DNA of 64,000 nt from the NCBI GenBank assembly GCA_900318665.1, contig ONLQ01000003.1:12387-76386 (forward strand), read 5' to 3'. This DNA comes from an uncultured Bacteroidales bacterium (GTDB lineage Bacteria > Bacteroidota > Bacteroidia > Bacteroidales > P3). The notes under the pieces are model-generated. The model made no database searches. It saw only the letters and a program-made list of their open reading frames with translations, and had not been told where the DNA came from. Within the stretch, counting starts at the first letter, position 1. Each line of letters starts with the position of its first letter. This document shows positions 24,041-31,378 of the stretch, piece after piece. The translations under genes were made by a program, and so were the position numbers.

Positions 24041-24518
24041 CACAAAATCCAACAAATTCACACAACCAGACAAAAAACGACTTAATCCTCGAACAATATT
24101 CTTAATGGATTTTAGCATAACATTGTTCCCAAAAAACTTGTTCTGCTTTTTTTCAAAGACTTAATGATAACCGATAGAAAAGGCAATAATATACAAGTAA
24201 TCCAGTCATAAAAAAGGTCTTTCATGTTTTTTGATTAGTTTCTCAGAAAAAAAGTAAATTTGCAAACGCTTACGCGCACGATGTAAGACATACAAGAAAA
24301 GCATTGTTATTAAGTCCTTACTTGTAAATTCGGTTGAACTCCGTGAAGTATGCTCCATGTATAAACATAATGTTTTTTTATACCTTTAAAGGTTACAAAA
24401 AGTAAATCGATGAGAGGCACTTAAGTCTCATTTTTTTATAGATGACCCTGCCCGTGGGAGGTATGAAAATACAAAATGACTAACGGGAAGAGTGTCAAAG
24501 ACGAATAAAATAAGATTT

Positions 24519-25406
24519 ATGGAAAATATAAAAAACATAACAGACATCCTTTTCGCAAAGATTTCTGAACTAATAGATCAATCGCGAGGCTTCGTAGTTA
24601 ATGCTGTCAACGTGGCGGAGGTCAGAACTCGCTTTGAGGTGGGACGCTATATTTTTGAGGATGAGCAGCGGGGCGAACGTGCCACATACGGCCAACGGGT
24701 GTTGAAAAAACTCTCTGCCCGACTGATGGAACATTATGGCAACGATTGGAGTTATGATACACTTGTAAGATGTCGGAAATTCTATCAAGCATACGAACAT
24801 GCAGAAATTGTGGCAATGGCGTTGCCACAATTAGAAGAAACAACACAATCACCAGAAAGCAAGAAACTTACAAATTGGGGCAACGGTGTTGCCACAATTC
24901 AGATGCCCCGTTTCACACTCTCATGGTCGCACTACCTAATCTTGATGCGAATCGAGAATAAAGAAGCCCGCAGTTTCTATGAGATTGAGGCGACCCAGTA
25001 ACAGTGGTCTGTCAAACAACTGAAGCGTCAGGTGGGTAGCAGCCTCTATGAGCGATTGGCATTGAGCCGCGACAAAGACGAAGTGATGCGGCTGGCCAGG
25101 GAAGGGCAAACCGTCGAAAAGCCGTCCGACATCATCAAGAACCCCATCACGCTGGAGTTCCTTGGCCTCAAGCCCAATGCCGCCTATACAGAGTCGAGGT
25201 TGGAGAACGCCATCATTGGCCGCATGCAGCAGTTCCTGTTGGAACTGGGAAAAGGATTCCTGTTCGAGGCCCGACAGAAACGCTTCACCTTCGAGGAACG
25301 TAACTTCTATGTCGATTTGGTGTTTATGTTCCATGGATTTGATACGACAGAGCATGAGGATAATGACAAAGTACGCCAAAACAAAGCATACAGGTGCGCT
25401 GCCTGA
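24519..25406 (+). pseudogene. DUF1016 / YhcG-type PD-(D/E)XK nuclease, disrupted
   Basis: ORFs 24492-25001 and 25032-25406 are in the same frame and are separated only by a TAA at 24999-25001 (...YEIEATQ*QWSVKQLKRQVGSSLYERLALS...). Family similarity ends after FYVDLVF (~25326), and the E.K part of the nuclease motif is missing. Confidence 0.7.
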
Positions 25407-25565: not shown

Positions 25566-26000
25566 ATGGCCTATTATCGTAAACGCAAATCAAGCCTCAC
25601 GGGTTTGTGGACGCCAGTCGCTGTTTCGACTCAGATGGTTGATGAAGAGTATCTGGCACGTCTTATCGGGCAACGCTCAACTGTACACGCTGCCGATATT
25701 GCTGCCGTCCTTACCGCTTTGCCTGAGGTTATAAGCGAGGCATTGGCTGATGGATTCAGCGTACAGTTGGGCAAACTTGGCTCATTCAATTTGGTCGTAG
25801 AATGTGAAAAGACGGGCGTGGCCACTTCTGCCGAGGTCTCGCCAAAGCAGATAACCAACGTCAAGGTTCAATTCCGTCCACCTCGCAAAATGCTCTGGAT
25901 GGGTGATGGGCGCAAGCGTCAGAACATGCTCCTCAATCGCCCGTACGAGTGGATTGAGTTGCCGCCCCGTCCAGGCAGCAAGGCGAGTGAGGAGGACTAA
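25566..26000 (+). CDS. HU-family (Bacteroidales HU-HIG type) DNA-binding protein
   Basis: 144 aa. The pattern ...LIGQRSTVHAADIAAVLTALPEVISEALADGFSVQLGKLGSF.L... is an HU-fold core, followed by a basic, proline-rich tail. Confidence 0.65.
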   Translation: MAYYRKRKSSLTGLWTPVAVSTQMVDEEYLARLIGQRSTVHAADIAAVLTALPEVISEALADGFSVQLGKLGSFNLVVECEKTGVATSAEVSPKQITNVKVQFRPPRKMLWMGDGRKRQNMLLNRPYEWIELPPRPGSKASEED

Positions 26001-26013
26001 AAAATAAAACGAC

Positions 26014-27090
26014 ATGAACACTCTGCCACAATCAAGAACGCTACCCATAGAACCGCTGACGCGCATCTTCAAGAACACGTCCGCGACGTATAAGTTCTAT
26101 TGGTTTATGGGCATCCTAGACCTATATGTCAAGAAGGACATGAAACGGATGAGCATTTGGGACCTTATGGTTGAGATGACTGCCAATGCTTGGTATCCAG
26201 TTAGCTATTTCCGGCTTTCGTTTGGCAAAAGCGACTCGCTGCGCGATGCTATTATCTCGCTGCAAGAGGTGAACAACCTTCCGATGAATATTAACCCTAA
26301 CGAGTTACGCCGTTGGCTGCACAACCACAAGAACGACACGATGGTGCGTCGCACGCTCGATTTCCTGCCCAAGAATGTGCCCTATTGGTTCCTGCGTCCG
26401 TGGATTGATGTGGCCGACACCAAAGAGATAATGCATCGTTCGCAGTCGTTGGAAAACAGCTGTCTCTACAAACTGACCAAAGAGGATGACACCATCTGGG
26501 TCGAACTGAACAGCAGGTGGTTGACCTACCTCAAAGAGAACTACGTCATTCTAAAAGACTTCGCCTATTGGAATCTCTCGTCGTTCCTGCAAGTACGTAA
26601 TCCCAATGTGCCTAACATTGCCACCAAGTTAGTGAAAGTGGAGAGTCGGCAAGCATTGACCAAACAGCGTAACCTGTGGGACTTCGTACTTGAACACTCA
26701 CAGCCGATGAACTGCATCTACACTGGCAATACGTTGGAAGTCGGCAATTACGACCTTGATCATTTTATCCCGTGGAGCTTCGTGTCGCACAACCTTTTGT
26801 GGAACCTTATCCCTGCCGACAGCAGTATCAACTCGTCAAAAAGCGACCGACTGCCAGACCTCGACCGCTATCTGCTACCTTACGCACAAACCCACCAAAT
26901 GGCCGTTCGCACATGCATTGAGGGCAACTATCGGAACAAGGAACTGCTCGATGATTACATATCGCTCGGCTGTACACCGCAGGAACTATCGCAAATGAGC
27001 AAAACAAACCTTGTGAACTGCTTCAAGCGAACCTTCGTACCAATGAGCCAGATTGCACAAAACATGGGATTTGAAGTATGGAGAAACTAA
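26014..27090 (+). CDS. HNH endonuclease with a ~235-aa uncharacterised N-terminal region
   Basis: 358 aa. The C-terminal CIYTGNTLEVGNYDLDHFIPWSFVSHNLLWNLIPADSSINSSKSDRLP is an HNH (beta-beta-alpha-Me) motif. I cannot assign the N-terminus (FKNTSATYKFYWFMGILDL...). Confidence 0.8.
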   Translation: MNTLPQSRTLPIEPLTRIFKNTSATYKFYWFMGILDLYVKKDMKRMSIWDLMVEMTANAWYPVSYFRLSFGKSDSLRDAIISLQEVNNLPMNINPNELRRWLHNHKNDTMVRRTLDFLPKNVPYWFLRPWIDVADTKEIMHRSQSLENSCLYKLTKEDDTIWVELNSRWLTYLKENYVILKDFAYWNLSSFLQVRNPNVPNIATKLVKVESRQALTKQRNLWDFVLEHSQPMNCIYTGNTLEVGNYDLDHFIPWSFVSHNLLWNLIPADSSINSSKSDRLPDLDRYLLPYAQTHQMAVRTCIEGNYRNKELLDDYISLGCTPQELSQMSKTNLVNCFKRTFVPMSQIAQNMGFEVWRN

Positions 27091-27959
27091 CGCACATAGA
27101 ACCCGAGAAGATAAACCGTCCATATCTGACGGCCATCAAGCGGACAGACCTTTCTGTGCCCACACGATACCTTATGCAACACGGATTGTTGAGAGGTAAG
27201 ATATTGGATTTTGGATGCGGTTTCGGTTTTGATACTGATGAACTATGTAGGCAGGGGTACAATGTCATTGGCTATGACTATTATTATCGCCCAGATTTCC
27301 CCATTGGAAAGTTTGATACCATTTTGTGTAACTATGTGTTGAATGTCCTTGAACCCTATGCACAAGCAGAGGTGTTGATGAATGTTGCTAATTTGCTATC
27401 GCCCAAAGGTACTGCTTTTTTTGCCGTGCGTAGAGATTTGACAGAAGAAGGTTTTCGGCTTCACGCCATCCACAAGCAATACACCTACCAATGCAACGTC
27501 ATACTTCCTTATAAAAGCATAGTTTCCAACGCAAGCTACGAACTATATCAATATAATCACTTCAACAAACTGCCTCGTGTTGAAGGCGAGAAATGTCCAT
27601 TCTGCAAACTCTCACGCCGCGTTGAAATAATATGTGAGACTACAACCTGTGTGGCTTTCTACGATGGTTACCCTGTTTCTCCCGGACATGCGCTCATAAT
27701 ACCCAAAAGACATGTCGCATCATATCGAGACCTAAGTCGTCAAGAGCGTTATGATATGGATGAAATAAGGGAATATGTGATGCGTAAGATAGATGAACGA
27801 TTTCAACCAGATGGTTACAATGTCGGAATTAATATCAACAAAGCGGCCGGCCAATCCGTTTTCCATTGTCACATGCACATTATTCCTAGATATAAAGGTG
27901 ATGTACCCAACCCCAAGGGCGGTGTACGTGGCGTTATTCCTCAAAAACAGAAATATTAA
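27078..27959 (+). CDS. fusion protein: class I SAM-dependent methyltransferase domain + HIT (histidine triad) domain
   Basis: 293 aa. ILDFGCGFGFD is SAM motif I, followed by GYD and ILCNYVLNVLEP. The C-terminal KCPFCKL...YDGYPVSPGHALIIPKRHV...HCHMHIIPR contains HxHxHxx. The ATG overlaps the HNH stop region by 13 nt. Confidence 0.8.
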   Translation: MEKLTHIEPEKINRPYLTAIKRTDLSVPTRYLMQHGLLRGKILDFGCGFGFDTDELCRQGYNVIGYDYYYRPDFPIGKFDTILCNYVLNVLEPYAQAEVLMNVANLLSPKGTAFFAVRRDLTEEGFRLHAIHKQYTYQCNVILPYKSIVSNASYELYQYNHFNKLPRVEGEKCPFCKLSRRVEIICETTTCVAFYDGYPVSPGHALIIPKRHVASYRDLSRQERYDMDEIREYVMRKIDERFQPDGYNVGININKAAGQSVFHCHMHIIPRYKGDVPNPKGGVRGVIPQKQKY

Positions 27960-28038: not shown

Positions 28039-29106
28039 ATGGAGAAAAAATATTTAAAACATAGTTTAAGTAAATTGACGGATTCCGAATACAAAGAGGC
28101 TGTTCTTAGCGCCAGTAGTATCTTGGATACGGATGATGGAGAAGACTGGTGCAAGCTGATTCTTAGAATTGCAGACGAGATAAAAAGAAGAAACGGGCTG
28201 GAAGAAGCCATAAAATACCTTGATGCCAGACGATCCGATTATGAAAGAGTGTTCAGTAATTTATTTGACAAAAGTGCTGAGATACTCAAGAAGACTTGTT
28301 ATTTCAATCTGGAAAACAACACAATTCATTCTTATGATAAAGCAAAAGAAAATATAGTTAGATATATATATAATGCTCTTGCCCAGATAGATTACAAGGC
28401 CACATATGATAAAATGCCTTACTACAGTTTTAGGTGCTTTTCGGAATACTCTTTAAACGATGTAAAGAACCAGAAATTAACCCTATCACATCCTCGTGAG
28501 TTTAATGACCCTTTGGATACTTTACTTGTTTGGTGGATGGTATCTGAAATCGAGAGCCCTGGTAGTTCTGACATTAACAAGAAATACACTCTCTTGTTGA
28601 AGAAAGTGTCTGAAAGTATTAAAATACGGTGTTTAGTCGCAGGTAAGAAAGGCAAAGAAACCATTCCAGTGGAAGATCTTTCAAGCCTTATGTGGGCACA
28701 CTATGCAAACAGTCATAAAGGTTTTTGTGTAGAATATGAGTTTGATAGATCTTTTACCTCTAGAGACCCATCTAAAGGCAATATTGTCTTGCTAAATGGA
28801 ATCAACTATACTAGCAAACTTGAAACACATGGCGAACCTTCCATCAAAGAAGCTCTGTTTAACAAAGGAGAGTTTTGGAATTACGAAAATGAGGTTAGAT
28901 TGGTAATGTTTAATGCAGAAATAGAAGAAGATTTCCCGTCACTATCTTGCGAAGGAAGAATTAAAGCCATATATTTGGGGGTTAAGTGTACAGATGAAAA
29001 TAGAAGAAAGATGGAAAGAGCTATTGGCCATAAGGATATACCCTTGTACCAAATGAAAATTGATGAGAACAATCTTATGCATTTTAAAAAACAACAAATA
29101 GGATAA
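28039..29106 (+). CDS. DUF2971 domain protein with an N-terminal helical extension
   Basis: 355 aa. LSHPREFNDPLD, LMWAHYANSHKGFCVEYEF, FWNYENEVRLV and IKAIYLGVKC follow the conserved DUF2971 order. The sequence is very AT-rich. Confidence 0.75.
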   Translation: MEKKYLKHSLSKLTDSEYKEAVLSASSILDTDDGEDWCKLILRIADEIKRRNGLEEAIKYLDARRSDYERVFSNLFDKSAEILKKTCYFNLENNTIHSYDKAKENIVRYIYNALAQIDYKATYDKMPYYSFRCFSEYSLNDVKNQKLTLSHPREFNDPLDTLLVWWMVSEIESPGSSDINKKYTLLLKKVSESIKIRCLVAGKKGKETIPVEDLSSLMWAHYANSHKGFCVEYEFDRSFTSRDPSKGNIVLLNGINYTSKLETHGEPSIKEALFNKGEFWNYENEVRLVMFNAEIEEDFPSLSCEGRIKAIYLGVKCTDENRRKMERAIGHKDIPLYQMKIDENNLMHFKKQQIG

Positions 29107-29110
29107 TACC

Positions 29111-31378
29111 ATGAATACTAATAGAATAACACAAGAAGAATTATTATCTTCTGTAATTCAATTCGAGAAGAATAAGAACAATGCAGAATTTGTCAGTCGA
29201 TTGCATGACGACAACTATTTATACAAATTCAAAGGTTCAAGAAAAGAGAAGATAGTTATTGTCATGCTAGATTCTCTGGATTTCATTGACCGGATGATTC
29301 ACCAACTGGAAATAGCCAAAGATTATATAGTTATTAATACGAACTATACTGATATCATTGAAGTGTTTACTACAGCCATCCTTCCTGAGTCTAAGATATC
29401 GGAACTGGAGAAGCCATTAGCGACAGAAGACCTGTCTCTTTCAGTTAATGATCTGATAAGTATAGAAGAGCGAAATGAATTCGCTTCATTGTTTATAACG
29501 GAGAACATGAGTATGAGTGAATCCGAAATTGCCCCTGCGGTTTATGACTATCTTGCTATGAGCAATGAATCATCCGATATTAAGAACCTATTTTTCTATG
29601 CTTTACTGCTAATGGATATATATCGACATCAACCGGTTGAAGAAAGATCTTTTATCGATGATAGTAGTAAAAAATATAATAAGAGTGAGTTGGAGATACA
29701 GCGTGCTATTAAAAAGATGAGAAGTGATGGAAAAATAACTCCATTACAAAAAGGTAATGTATTCAGTTTGAGTGATAGTGAGCAACGCGCTATCGATAAA
29801 TCGATAAAAGACTCCCGTGCTACGGAGCAGCAATTCCTTATGAAATATAATGAGATTTTGGACAAATATCAGGTGTCTTGGGGTGAGGATATTCTTGAAA
29901 AACTAAAGAACGAGTATCTTCTAAAATATAATGGATTGTATGGTGACGAACAAACAAATGGAACAGATAAGAATGGAGATAATACTAGTTTTGAACAATT
30001 CCTGACCGAAAAATTAGGAAACATTTCGCAAACATTTCTTGAGGAACTATATGGGTTGTGTGACAATACGGACTACCTTGATCAATATGCTCTAAATCAA
30101 TCATTTTTCAACCTTTTTTGTTCTCCAAAGTATGAAGAATATTTGAGTAAAAAAAATATTTATATTTACCTTGACACTCCTGTGATTTCAAATTACATTT
30201 GTTCGAAGAGCGAATATCCAAATGATTACAATTTAGAATTAAATAATCCAGACTATCAGAACGCTTTGGATCTCTTTGGTTATCAGGAAGAGAATGATGA
30301 CAAAATAAGTTTTGTTGTCCCTCATGATTATCTCCTGGAAACAGTCGGTGAATTAAAAAAAGCCTTACAGCTATCTTGGTTCGACCAAATACAGGATGCC
30401 CCGATAAAAATGCAAACATCCAATGTTTTCTACAATTTTTATTGTTCAATTAGGGATGAAAAGAAGATTCGCGAGGAAGATATTTCTGGATTTAGTTTTG
30501 AACAATTTGTCAAAACATTAGGTTTTGGAGAAGTCAATCCAGATGCAAATACTTTTATGAAGAAAAACGTCACTAATATGAGGTATTTCCTTAAAAAAAT
30601 GGGAGTTGAAACACTAGATATTGTGGACGGTTATTTTGATGGCTTTGATAAGGTGAAAGTTAGTTATGAATGGGAGTTACAGGAAAGAGGTCGAGACAAA
30701 ACTAATCTTGCTATTAATGCCGATGTTCGTCAGGCTTTTTATATTACAAAAGAAGCCCTTGAAAATGGTTTAGAGAATACTGAATATTATCTGGTAAGTT
30801 GGGATAACACGTTGTTCAAACTACGCGACATTGTCAAAGATGAATTGGAAATAGCTGGACGCACTTATGGGATATATAAACCAGGAGAATTGGCAGACAA
30901 ACTTGCTTTTCGTAATTTTCGGATTAGTAAGGAGAACGTGAAAAGCGAAGTTTTTGCTTATGCAAACAATAGTTTCAATATGAGTGATAAAATCCGAAGC
31001 CTTTTTGATAACGTGTTAACCCCGTATTTTGCATCGTCTAAAAACAAAAACAGTAAACTCGTTTCCTCTCTGTTGACAATGGAACATTCCCAAATTGATG
31101 GTGGGGTAGAAAAAGAAACGTCTTCAAGAAGTGACAAGACTATGTTTGAAGAAACATTTATCTCAATTGTCATGTCTTTGCCAAAGTATAATTGTACAAA
31201 ACAAAATCTGCGTGATTTCTTGGTTGATGAGAAAAATAATGATTTCATTATCACTACTTTTAAAGAAGCATTCCAGGAAAAAGGGGCGGGCAAGAGCATT
31301 GACATTGCAGACAGATTCTGCAAAGAAATAAAAGACTATGTAAATGTAGTGACTGATGATATTAAATTGTCATTGTGA
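29111..31378 (+). CDS. large hypothetical protein (755 aa), possible PIN-like core in the middle
   Basis: A long uninterrupted ORF 4 nt after the DUF2971 stop, with the same low G+C. I see no Walker A, HEPN or HNH motif. For the acidic-residue pattern, see the finding at 30152-30835. Confidence 0.75.
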   Translation: MNTNRITQEELLSSVIQFEKNKNNAEFVSRLHDDNYLYKFKGSRKEKIVIVMLDSLDFIDRMIHQLEIAKDYIVINTNYTDIIEVFTTAILPESKISELEKPLATEDLSLSVNDLISIEERNEFASLFITENMSMSESEIAPAVYDYLAMSNESSDIKNLFFYALLLMDIYRHQPVEERSFIDDSSKKYNKSELEIQRAIKKMRSDGKITPLQKGNVFSLSDSEQRAIDKSIKDSRATEQQFLMKYNEILDKYQVSWGEDILEKLKNEYLLKYNGLYGDEQTNGTDKNGDNTSFEQFLTEKLGNISQTFLEELYGLCDNTDYLDQYALNQSFFNLFCSPKYEEYLSKKNIYIYLDTPVISNYICSKSEYPNDYNLELNNPDYQNALDLFGYQEENDDKISFVVPHDYLLETVGELKKALQLSWFDQIQDAPIKMQTSNVFYNFYCSIRDEKKIREEDISGFSFEQFVKTLGFGEVNPDANTFMKKNVTNMRYFLKKMGVETLDIVDGYFDGFDKVKVSYEWELQERGRDKTNLAINADVRQAFYITKEALENGLENTEYYLVSWDNTLFKLRDIVKDELEIAGRTYGIYKPGELADKLAFRNFRISKENVKSEVFAYANNSFNMSDKIRSLFDNVLTPYFASSKNKNSKLVSSLLTMEHSQIDGGVEKETSSRSDKTMFEETFISIVMSLPKYNCTKQNLRDFLVDEKNNDFIITTFKEAFQEKGAGKSIDIADRFCKEIKDYVNVVTDDIKLSL

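Follow-up and report, generated by a model that had tools for sequence, protein, structure and literature searches.

The subject of this analysis is a group of three adjacent genes on a 64,000-nucleotide (nt) stretch of DNA from an uncultured Bacteroidales bacterium (GenBank assembly GCA_900318665.1, contig ONLQ01000003.1, positions 12,387 to 76,386), which is referred to here as the window and whose own numbering is used throughout. All three genes lie on the forward strand. The first (25566-26000) encodes a 144-amino-acid (aa) protein of the HU-HIG / TIGR01201 HU-related type, the second (26014-27090) encodes a 358-aa HNH endonuclease, and the third (27078-27959) encodes a 293-aa bifunctional protein, MTase-HIT, in which a class I S-adenosylmethionine (SAM) methyltransferase is joined to a HIT domain. 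An earlier note, made from the letters of this DNA, had reported three open reading frames (ORFs), a gap of 13 nt between the HU stop codon and the HNH ATG (26001-26013), and a MTase-HIT ATG at 27078 that lies 13 nt within the HNH gene; on re-reading all of these are exact, and the overlap of the HNH 3' end with the MTase-HIT start (27078-27090) couples the two genes translationally. The three genes are held within a low-GC island of 9 kb (~24.0-33.4 kb; GC 0.35-0.45 against ~0.51 around it), which is bordered by a 7TM-HD gene and anmK and lies between housekeeping genes. Comparison with other genomes points to the HNH gene, as putative effector, and the MTase-HIT gene, as its conserved partner, as the unit that matters. 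This pair, 26014-27959, is read here, with somewhat better than even confidence, as a mobile two-gene cassette found in defence islands, whose role would be of the restriction type and directed at phages or other mobile elements.

How firmly are the two genes tied to one another? A scan for MTase-HIT, with one genome taken per GTDB species, gives confirmed relatives in at least 324 species-level genomes, from which 80 loci were kept, and a reverse scan from the HNH side through metagenome contigs gives another 80 loci, 79 of them with room downstream. The two scans together represent 160 related loci, and the 131 with both genes complete were used for alignment. An HNH homologue (43-84% identity) sits directly upstream of MTase-HIT in 79 of the 80 kept species loci, and MTase-HIT sits directly downstream of HNH in all 79 evaluable metagenome loci, which supports the linking of these two genes in the earlier note. 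The pairing persists even where identity falls to 43% for HNH and 60% for MTase-HIT, with a junction of between -16 and +13 nt in 119 of the 131 loci, and at 90% identity each protein falls into ~3,000 clusters. With thousands of homologues for either gene and a junction that other genomes preserve, the arrangement is far beyond chance. The relationship is also asymmetric, in that no HNH gene without MTase-HIT was found among the Bacteroidales loci scanned and MTase-HIT orphans do occur. The only Bacteroidales MTase-HIT genes seen to lack the HNH gene are those of Paraprevotella, where (L001, 8001-11871) a 365-aa MTase-HIT with a C-terminal extension is followed after 65 nt by a 902-aa MkoA-like superfamily 1 (SF1) helicase with a DUF2726 nuclease-like domain. 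At L190 (7194-9864) the pair is interrupted by a further HNH gene of another kind (PF01844, 248 aa), placed between the HNH_4 gene and MTase-HIT.

The HU-like gene is placed quite differently. Its domain is evident (PF18291, E=2.7e-20, score 73.1 against a cut-off of 26.2; TIGR01201, 69.6 bits against 68.6), and a homologue adjoins the pair in none of the 160 related loci, with the sole weak match (L113) lying ~4.5 kb from the pair and the exact protein being confined to the window's own lineage. In locus L095, whose HNH protein is 96% identical, a spacer of 177 nt separates an intact upstream yhcG gene from the HNH gene, with no HU gene present, and the nucleotide similarity with the window starts exactly at the HNH start codon. 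In the window itself yhcG is split and truncated, and the HU gene is found in place of its 3' part. Given the intact yhcG of L095 and the broken one of the window, the HU-like gene appears to have come in by local rearrangement, as a lineage-specific neighbour that stands outside the conserved module. No terminator-like site was found between HU and HNH in the window, and the HU gene is probably co-transcribed with HNH there; the promoter evidence adds little, as a sigma-70 scan gave an uninformative 20 sites where 21.4 are expected, and neither HU nor HNH was found to have a Bacteroidetes -7 motif (TAnnTTTG) ahead of it. The earlier note had taken the three genes as one operon, of which the coupling of HNH with MTase-HIT stands and the inclusion of HU probably stands for this genome, but the trio is not a conserved unit. 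It had also proposed that the HU-like protein targets DNA for the system, an idea left without comparative support because HU is absent both at the 160 loci and in L095. It is thus highly improbable that the three proteins form one three-component system with HU as the DNA-targeting part: despite the 13-nt gap, and despite the fact that a small DNA-binding gene holds the same upstream position in some other lineages, the comparison appears largely to refute it, since HU is missing beside the pair at the 160 loci, the 96%-identical copy in L095 has an intact yhcG ahead of HNH, and the window's HU substitutes for the end of a decayed gene in the manner of a local insertion. The small gene of those other lineages (L191, 4940-5155, and likewise L192 and L193) encodes a 71-aa Cro/CI-type helix-turn-helix (HTH) protein of the HTH_3 family, which resembles restriction-modification controller proteins, and it ends 2 nt before the HNH start.

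The HNH protein can be divided into three parts. The N-terminal domain (aa 1-210; 26014-26643) is helical with one beta-hairpin and contains an invariant 'ATYKF' helix, a motif that is also common to distant plasmid HNH proteins. The catalytic core of the beta-beta-alpha-Me type (aa 215-290; 26656-26883) carries five invariant residues, and the C-terminal helical region (aa 291-358; 26884-27087; modelled helices 283-350) is the fastest-evolving part. The core matches HNH_4 (PF13395, E=6.6e-12, 45.6 bits against a cut-off of 22, residues 234-281) and aligns with the HNH core of Cas9, including the D-H...N...N residues, with D249, H250, N264, N273 and K276 being invariant in 131 of 131 aligned homologues. 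Cas9 proteins also provide the best PDB and NCBIfam matches. Unlike Cas9, though, this is a stand-alone protein of 358 aa with unrelated flanking domains, no RuvC and no CRISPR array, and its Cas9 family scores are far under the cut-offs (NF049971, 28.6 against 375 bits; TIGR01865, 18.9 against 100). Median identity to the window copy is 50% over the whole protein, made up of 49.5% in the N-terminal domain, 63% in the core and 39.7% in the C-terminal region. An AlphaFold2 model of the protein has a predicted local distance difference test (pLDDT) score of 85, and Foldseek with the whole-chain model returned nothing at E<=0.001 in PDB or BFVD, giving weak HNH-core matches only. Neither a sulfur-binding nor an SRA domain was found in the protein by Pfam, by PDB profile search or by Foldseek against PDB with the whole-chain model. 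The intact core would make the protein a DNA-cutting effector, and the fast-evolving, non-catalytic flanking domains would most likely set the choice of target. One homologue (P0040, L009 2270-3671) is enlarged to 453 aa through internal duplications of the N-terminal and middle parts (alignment A6).

The partner protein brings together two enzyme folds. The methyltransferase domain (aa 1-165; 27078-27572) is a Rossmann domain of small-molecule type with a conserved basic N-terminal motif, and its Pfam matches are Methyltransf_23 (E=2.7e-10), 25, 12, 11 and 31 only, the best matches overall being small-molecule methyltransferases such as UbiG and TehB-like enzymes. The SAM-binding GCGFG motif (DFGCGFGFD) is present, and motif I residues D44, G46, G48 and G50, together with D67, are invariant in the 131-locus alignment. 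The earlier note saw no motif IV of DNA methyltransferases in this protein, and this holds up: the translation contains no (D/N/S)PP(Y/F) and indeed no PP dipeptide anywhere, the 165-aa domain contains no PCQ-type motif and no target-recognition domain, and N85, at the position equivalent to NPPY, varies between N, V, H, Q and I in the alignment. Judged by its motifs and its relatives, the domain does not appear to be of the DNA base methyltransferase type. The second fold, which the note had named as a nucleotide-hydrolase/transferase fusion, is confirmed as a HIT domain of the Hint/Fhit type (aa 170-293; 27585-27959; PF01230, E=2e-24, 86.5 bits against a cut-off of 21.5, residues 183-273), with the best PDB match being 2EO4 (E=1e-17) and the closest relatives being archaeal and bacterial Hint-like proteins and Ap4A phosphorylase. 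Its HxHxH motif (HCHMHII; H263, H265 and H267) is invariant in the same alignment. The triad, HxHxHxx, is what this domain has in common with Hint, Fhit and aprataxin enzymes, from which it differs in being fused to a methyltransferase, in carrying a distinctive basic C-terminal tail, GDVPNPKGGVRGVIP, which is conserved, and in being linked to nucleases in genomes. Many members of the family (P0221, P0237, P0130 and others) have an extra C-terminal segment of ~75 aa (alignment A1, columns 300-400) with sub-threshold matches of HTH type only (GcrA, Sigma70_r4, Myb, HTH_11), which is lacking in the window copy.

One alternative explanation for the gene pair is classical type II-like restriction-modification, in which the methyltransferase would mark host bases at particular sites and the HNH protein would cut the sites left unmethylated. 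The formal likeness, which the earlier note had pointed out, is real enough, as an adjacent and translationally coupled nuclease and SAM methyltransferase are also what is seen, co-expressed, in systems with an HNH endonuclease of the KpnI type. The orphan asymmetry in Bacteroidales is in keeping with it, and so are the weakly HTH-like extension of many family members and the presence on a phage contig of a stand-alone methyltransferase of the same clade, reminiscent of the orphan protective methyltransferases of phages. In contrast to KpnI-type systems, however, the methyltransferase here is a minimal 165-aa domain of small-molecule type, without a target-recognition domain or a DPPY or PCQ-type motif, and is fused to a HIT domain whose invariant active site restriction-modification leaves unexplained; in other phyla HIT alone takes the methyltransferase's place. 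Nor do the partners co-vary. MTase-HIT is highly conserved (median identity to the window copy 77.5%), whereas the HNH recognition regions diverge, and over the 131 loci the identities of the two proteins are uncorrelated (Spearman rho 0.10, p=0.27), a measure that serves as a proxy for co-variation of specificity. These different rates (HNH 50%, MTase-HIT 78%) and the absence of correlation argue against a cognate sequence-specific restriction-modification system and for a universal substrate of the accessory enzyme, and the pattern fits a variable recognition or effector protein that would be served by an enzyme with an invariant substrate. From the comparison of sequences, the cassette appears to lack two defining features of restriction-modification, namely the DNA-methyltransferase motifs with a target-recognition domain and, by the proxy, co-variation of its components, and classical restriction-modification is regarded as improbable.

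The wider family broadens this picture. Searched against the whole library, MTase-HIT brings up three kinds of relative: fusions over the full length, at identities as low as ~31%; methyltransferase domains that stand alone; and many proteins with HIT only. Some proteins of ~1,000-1,350 aa begin with the same HIT subtype, at 45-54% identity that includes the GDVPNPKGGVRGVIP tail, and continue with a PLD nuclease and a superfamily 2 (SF2) helicase, often with DUF3427, a layout that we take to be the SauUSI architecture. This is a large, mainly actinobacterial family (P0305, P0443 and relatives; L096-L098), with or without DUF3427 and Peptidase_S24, whose genes stand alone beside other defence-like genes and whose proteins match TIGR04095 weakly. 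SauUSI-like type IV enzymes with an N-terminal HIT therefore resemble the present pair in joining the same HIT subtype to a DNA nuclease in defence-like neighbourhoods, and differ from it in using another nuclease together with a helicase, in a single polypeptide and with no methyltransferase. An obligatory triad of methyltransferase, HIT and nuclease was considered and rejected, given the weak TIGR04095 match and three HIT-PLD-helicase contexts without a methyltransferase. On plasmids, HIT genes of the window subtype adjoin HNH genes of ~340 aa, with the order HNH then stand-alone HIT in Hymenobacter (3-nt gap), HIT then HNH in Polaromonas, and HIT then HNH, overlapping, in Aromatoleum. Overall length, HNH core and the N-terminal helix ('SATYKF') are all shared between these plasmid HNH proteins and the window protein. 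Gammaproteobacterial members of the same HNH family have upstream of them a gene for a 197-aa SAM methyltransferase resembling TehB and TPMT (Pseudoalteromonas, Acinetobacter lwoffii), the A. lwoffii genes adjoining a type I-F CRISPR-Cas locus. The methyltransferase is truncated and the HNH gene intact on the A. baumannii plasmid pPUMA0052_1, beside BREX (L186 3296-3496); it is frameshifted, again beside an intact HNH gene, on a Marinomonas plasmid next to McrBC (L188 2880-3481); and it is absent beside the HNH relative of P. shioyasakiensis. The partner types thus vary across phyla, and DNA nucleases are repeatedly accompanied by HIT, by a small methyltransferase or by both.

Partner swapping bears directly on the notion of a toxin-antidote (addiction) module, in which the HNH protein would be a toxin that MTase-HIT neutralises through binding or modification, serving element maintenance or abortive infection. 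The tight coupling of the genes, carriage on a mobilisable element beside HipBA and the asymmetric orphan pattern are all what such a module might display, and in Bacteroidales the putative toxin was never seen without its putative antidote, of which orphans exist. That pattern is violated in the distant gammaproteobacterial relatives, where HNH genes persist with decayed or absent partners, so that the methyltransferase partner is not a universal antidote. The partner, moreover, at 293 aa and with two active sites that do not vary, is an enzyme rather than a simple binding antidote, unrelated enzymes replace it in other phyla, and the putative toxin gene is both the first in order and the fast-evolving component. 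Swapping of this kind is unlike a specific protein-protein antidote, and an enzymatic helper or regulator could be swapped. A toxin-antidote role is viewed as a little more doubtful than restriction-modification.

The same diversity of partners would be accommodated if the HNH protein nicked or cut invader DNA and the accessory enzyme made the break unligatable, with HIT stripping AMP from ligase-adenylated 5' ends in the way of aprataxin and the methyltransferase methylating the end group. Aprataxin hydrolyses 5'-adenylated DNA, and Hint hydrolyses AMP-lysine phosphoramidates, and an anti-repair scheme built on this biochemistry accounts for the presence of HIT, methyltransferase or both with the same nuclease family and for the fusion of HIT to unrelated nucleases. 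Yet it is purely inferential, the HIT domain is Hint/Fhit-like and not aprataxin-like, and the orphan asymmetry goes unexplained, all of which makes this a very unlikely account.

From one locus to the next the pair has different neighbours, which belong mainly to defence and mobile-element families. Upstream these include AbiEii, Fic, T5orf172, YhcG, AIPR, HipA and integrases, and downstream JetA, TIR, RhuM, DNA methylases, AAA_15/21, GmrSD, DpdF, DdmD, SspD and TIR-pAgo. In other loci its neighbours encode an nSTAND NTPase, SLFN/AlbA and HEPN-NTase proteins, or are of Septu-like and MORC-like type, and on contigs of the Bacteroides intestinalis type the pair is carried by a mobilisable element with a relaxase/MobC, a primase-like gene, an excisionase, an integrase and HipBA. 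The defence neighbourhood that the earlier note had thought worth looking for is thus seen, in the form of variable, defence-rich flanks, as an association. The cassette itself was not found in the scan of IMG/VR viral contigs. One such contig (L196, 256-978) encodes a stand-alone 144-aa methyltransferase of the same clade with the basic N-terminal motif kept, placed between a 93-aa His/Cys-rich HNH-like ORF, which it directly follows, and radical-SAM-like genes; this phage methyltransferase may be a phage counter-measure.

Some of these neighbours point to DNA phosphorothioation. Here the cassette would work with SspBCD- or Dnd-type modification, the HNH protein discriminating the phosphorothioate status of DNA and the methyltransferase and HIT carrying out S-methylation, desulfuration or de-adenylation of thiophosphate or adenylated intermediates in the backbone. 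The only specific NCBIfam match of the methyltransferase domain is to TIGR04096 (dnd_rel_methyl, 'DNA phosphorothioation-associated putative methyltransferase'; residues 17-94, E=1.2e-17), which stand-alone relatives match as well, but the score of 63.8 bits is far under the cut-off of 150 and the match covers model positions 6-85 of 478. Genes resembling ssp occur in or beside the pair's locus in 7 of the 80 kept species loci (~9%). In L024 and L048 the order is DUF4007, SspC-like, three small ORFs, phosphoadenosine phosphosulfate (PAPS) reductase, HNH and MTase-HIT with gaps of 3-6 nt; in L073, L075 and L079 HNH and MTase-HIT are followed by SspD (PADLOC 1e-88) with gaps of ~20 nt; and in L071 and L084 DUF4007 and SspC-like genes lie a few genes upstream of the pair. 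These seven loci nevertheless reduce to about three independent arrangements. The 376-aa gene after SspC in L071 was rejected as a PAPS reductase, being an OLD-like ATPase, and L079 was rejected as a case of the pair inserted into an intact ssp operon, being a mosaic island with a truncated DUF4007 in which the 1050-aa gene between DUF4007 and the pair is a SIR2-pAgo fusion. In full, L079 (3322-12254) reads truncated DUF4007, SIR2-APAZ-pAgo fusion (1050 aa), pair, SspD and an XPB-like SF2 helicase (756 aa). In ~90% of loci, the window included, no ssp or dnd gene is nearby, and none was found in the whole 64 kb of the window.

Two pieces of published background and one phage lend the phosphorothioate link some weight. 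The sspBCD genes are found in only ~3% of genomes (PMC12914056), a rarity against which the ssp-like genes near the pair count in favour, and HINT1 hydrolyses and desulfurates nucleoside 5'-phosphorothioates (PMC8775712). The Streptomyces phage phiSASD1 carries a HIT gene of the window type after one for PAPS reductase. The known phosphorothioate defences (SspABCD with SspE or SspFGH, Dnd with DndFGH, and the ScoMcrA-type fusions of a sulfur-binding domain to HNH; TIGR04096/TIGR04095) likewise include an HNH nuclease, and their associated methyltransferase model is the one matched by the N-terminus of MTase-HIT. The window HNH differs from the ScoMcrA type, however, in having no detectable sulfur-binding winged HTH or SRA domain, and no similarity to a sulfur-binding domain was detected in its N-terminal domain; and most pair loci differ from the Ssp and Dnd systems in having no phosphorothioation genes nearby. 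Work alongside a phosphorothioation system is held to be unlikely, though a genuine lead. A bolder form is offered just as tentatively: the cassette could be a phosphorothioate-coupled restriction module, with an HNH effector and with methyltransferase and HIT chemistry directed at thiophosphates or adenylates of DNA or of its degradation products, that serves in gut Bacteroidales as an alternative partner to SspE, SspFGH or DndFGH for modification of the SspBCD type. If true, this would explain the recurrence of TIGR04096-type methyltransferases and HIT domains beside nucleases. Ranked by falling confidence, the alternatives run from phosphorothioate coupling through classical restriction-modification, the toxin-antidote module and the making of unligatable breaks to the HU-containing trio.

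The other genes of the window's island deserve brief mention. The decayed yhcG (24492-25406) consists of a DUF1016_N ORF (169 aa) and a separate, truncated PDDEXK ORF (124 aa) that covers profile positions 2-66 of 157, and both ORFs match the PADLOC candidate PDC-S02. After the pair, at 28039-31378, a 355-aa DUF2971 protein (PADLOC PDC-S31, E=1e-32) is followed after 4 nt by a 755-aa protein for which no family match was found. These two genes (GC ~0.35) are probably a separate and separately acquired candidate defence pair. At L190 a DUF2971 gene (451 aa) and a 605-aa gene adjoin another HNH/MTase-HIT cassette on the opposite strand.

What, then, would the pair do? If it is a restriction-type cassette, the HNH protein would cut DNA, and MTase-HIT would act on a phosphate-linked group, be it a nucleotide or an end or backbone position of DNA that has been nucleotidylated (adenylated) or thiophosphorylated. 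This proposal stems from the likeness of the enzyme to small-molecule and phosphate-directed enzymes, from the missing target-recognition domain and DPPY motif and from the Hint/Fhit character of its HIT domain, and the enzyme seems unlikely to write a sequence-specific base methylation mark. Its chemistry would license or restrain the nuclease and in this way spare the host. The results are compatible with the suggestion of the earlier note that an enzyme which modifies small molecules, nucleotides or nucleic-acid ends licenses or restrains the nuclease.

Several observations weigh against taking the pair for a defence cassette. The defence-island context is only guilt by association. The N-terminal domain of the HNH protein gives no Pfam match at E<=10 and none in a PDB profile search, and the AlphaFold2 model of MTase-HIT, from a shallow alignment, has a pLDDT of 54 and is unusable, offering no structural clue to the substrate. 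In the three contexts examined the HIT-PLD-helicase genes have no methyltransferase neighbour, and the gammaproteobacterial HNH relatives appear to survive with a decayed or absent methyltransferase. Finally, PADLOC-DB 2.0 contains no system model with this composition and matches only at the level of domains, with the HNH core matching Cas9 and PtuB, HIT matching ThsC, and one weak match to mad2. ThsC, a HIT accessory protein in the type II Thoeris defence system, is the only PADLOC model matched by the window HIT (E=1.3e-9), but the likeness is at the level of the HIT fold only and neither ThsA (SIR2/SLOG) nor ThsB (TIR) is found among the seven island proteins. The searchable literature likewise holds no description of a HIT + HNH or MTase-HIT system, in agreement with the earlier note, to which no characterised system of this make-up was known.

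The pair is therefore best described as a candidate defence cassette of two genes, widespread and uncharacterised, whose enzymatic make-up is unusual. If it is a working defence system it would be a common one, present in at least 324 species-level genomes, that has been overlooked in the Bacteroidales of the human gut and the rumen, in which few defence systems have been tested. HIT, alone or with a methyltransferase that is not of the DNA type, recurs beside three unrelated kinds of nuclease, namely HNH, PLD-helicase and SF1 helicase-DUF2726, which suggests that phosphate-linked chemistry serves, in a general and undescribed manner, to license or support restriction nucleases, and this may be connected to DNA phosphorothioation. 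For this idea of nuclease licensing the cassette, being small and made up of only two genes, would provide a genetically tractable entry point.

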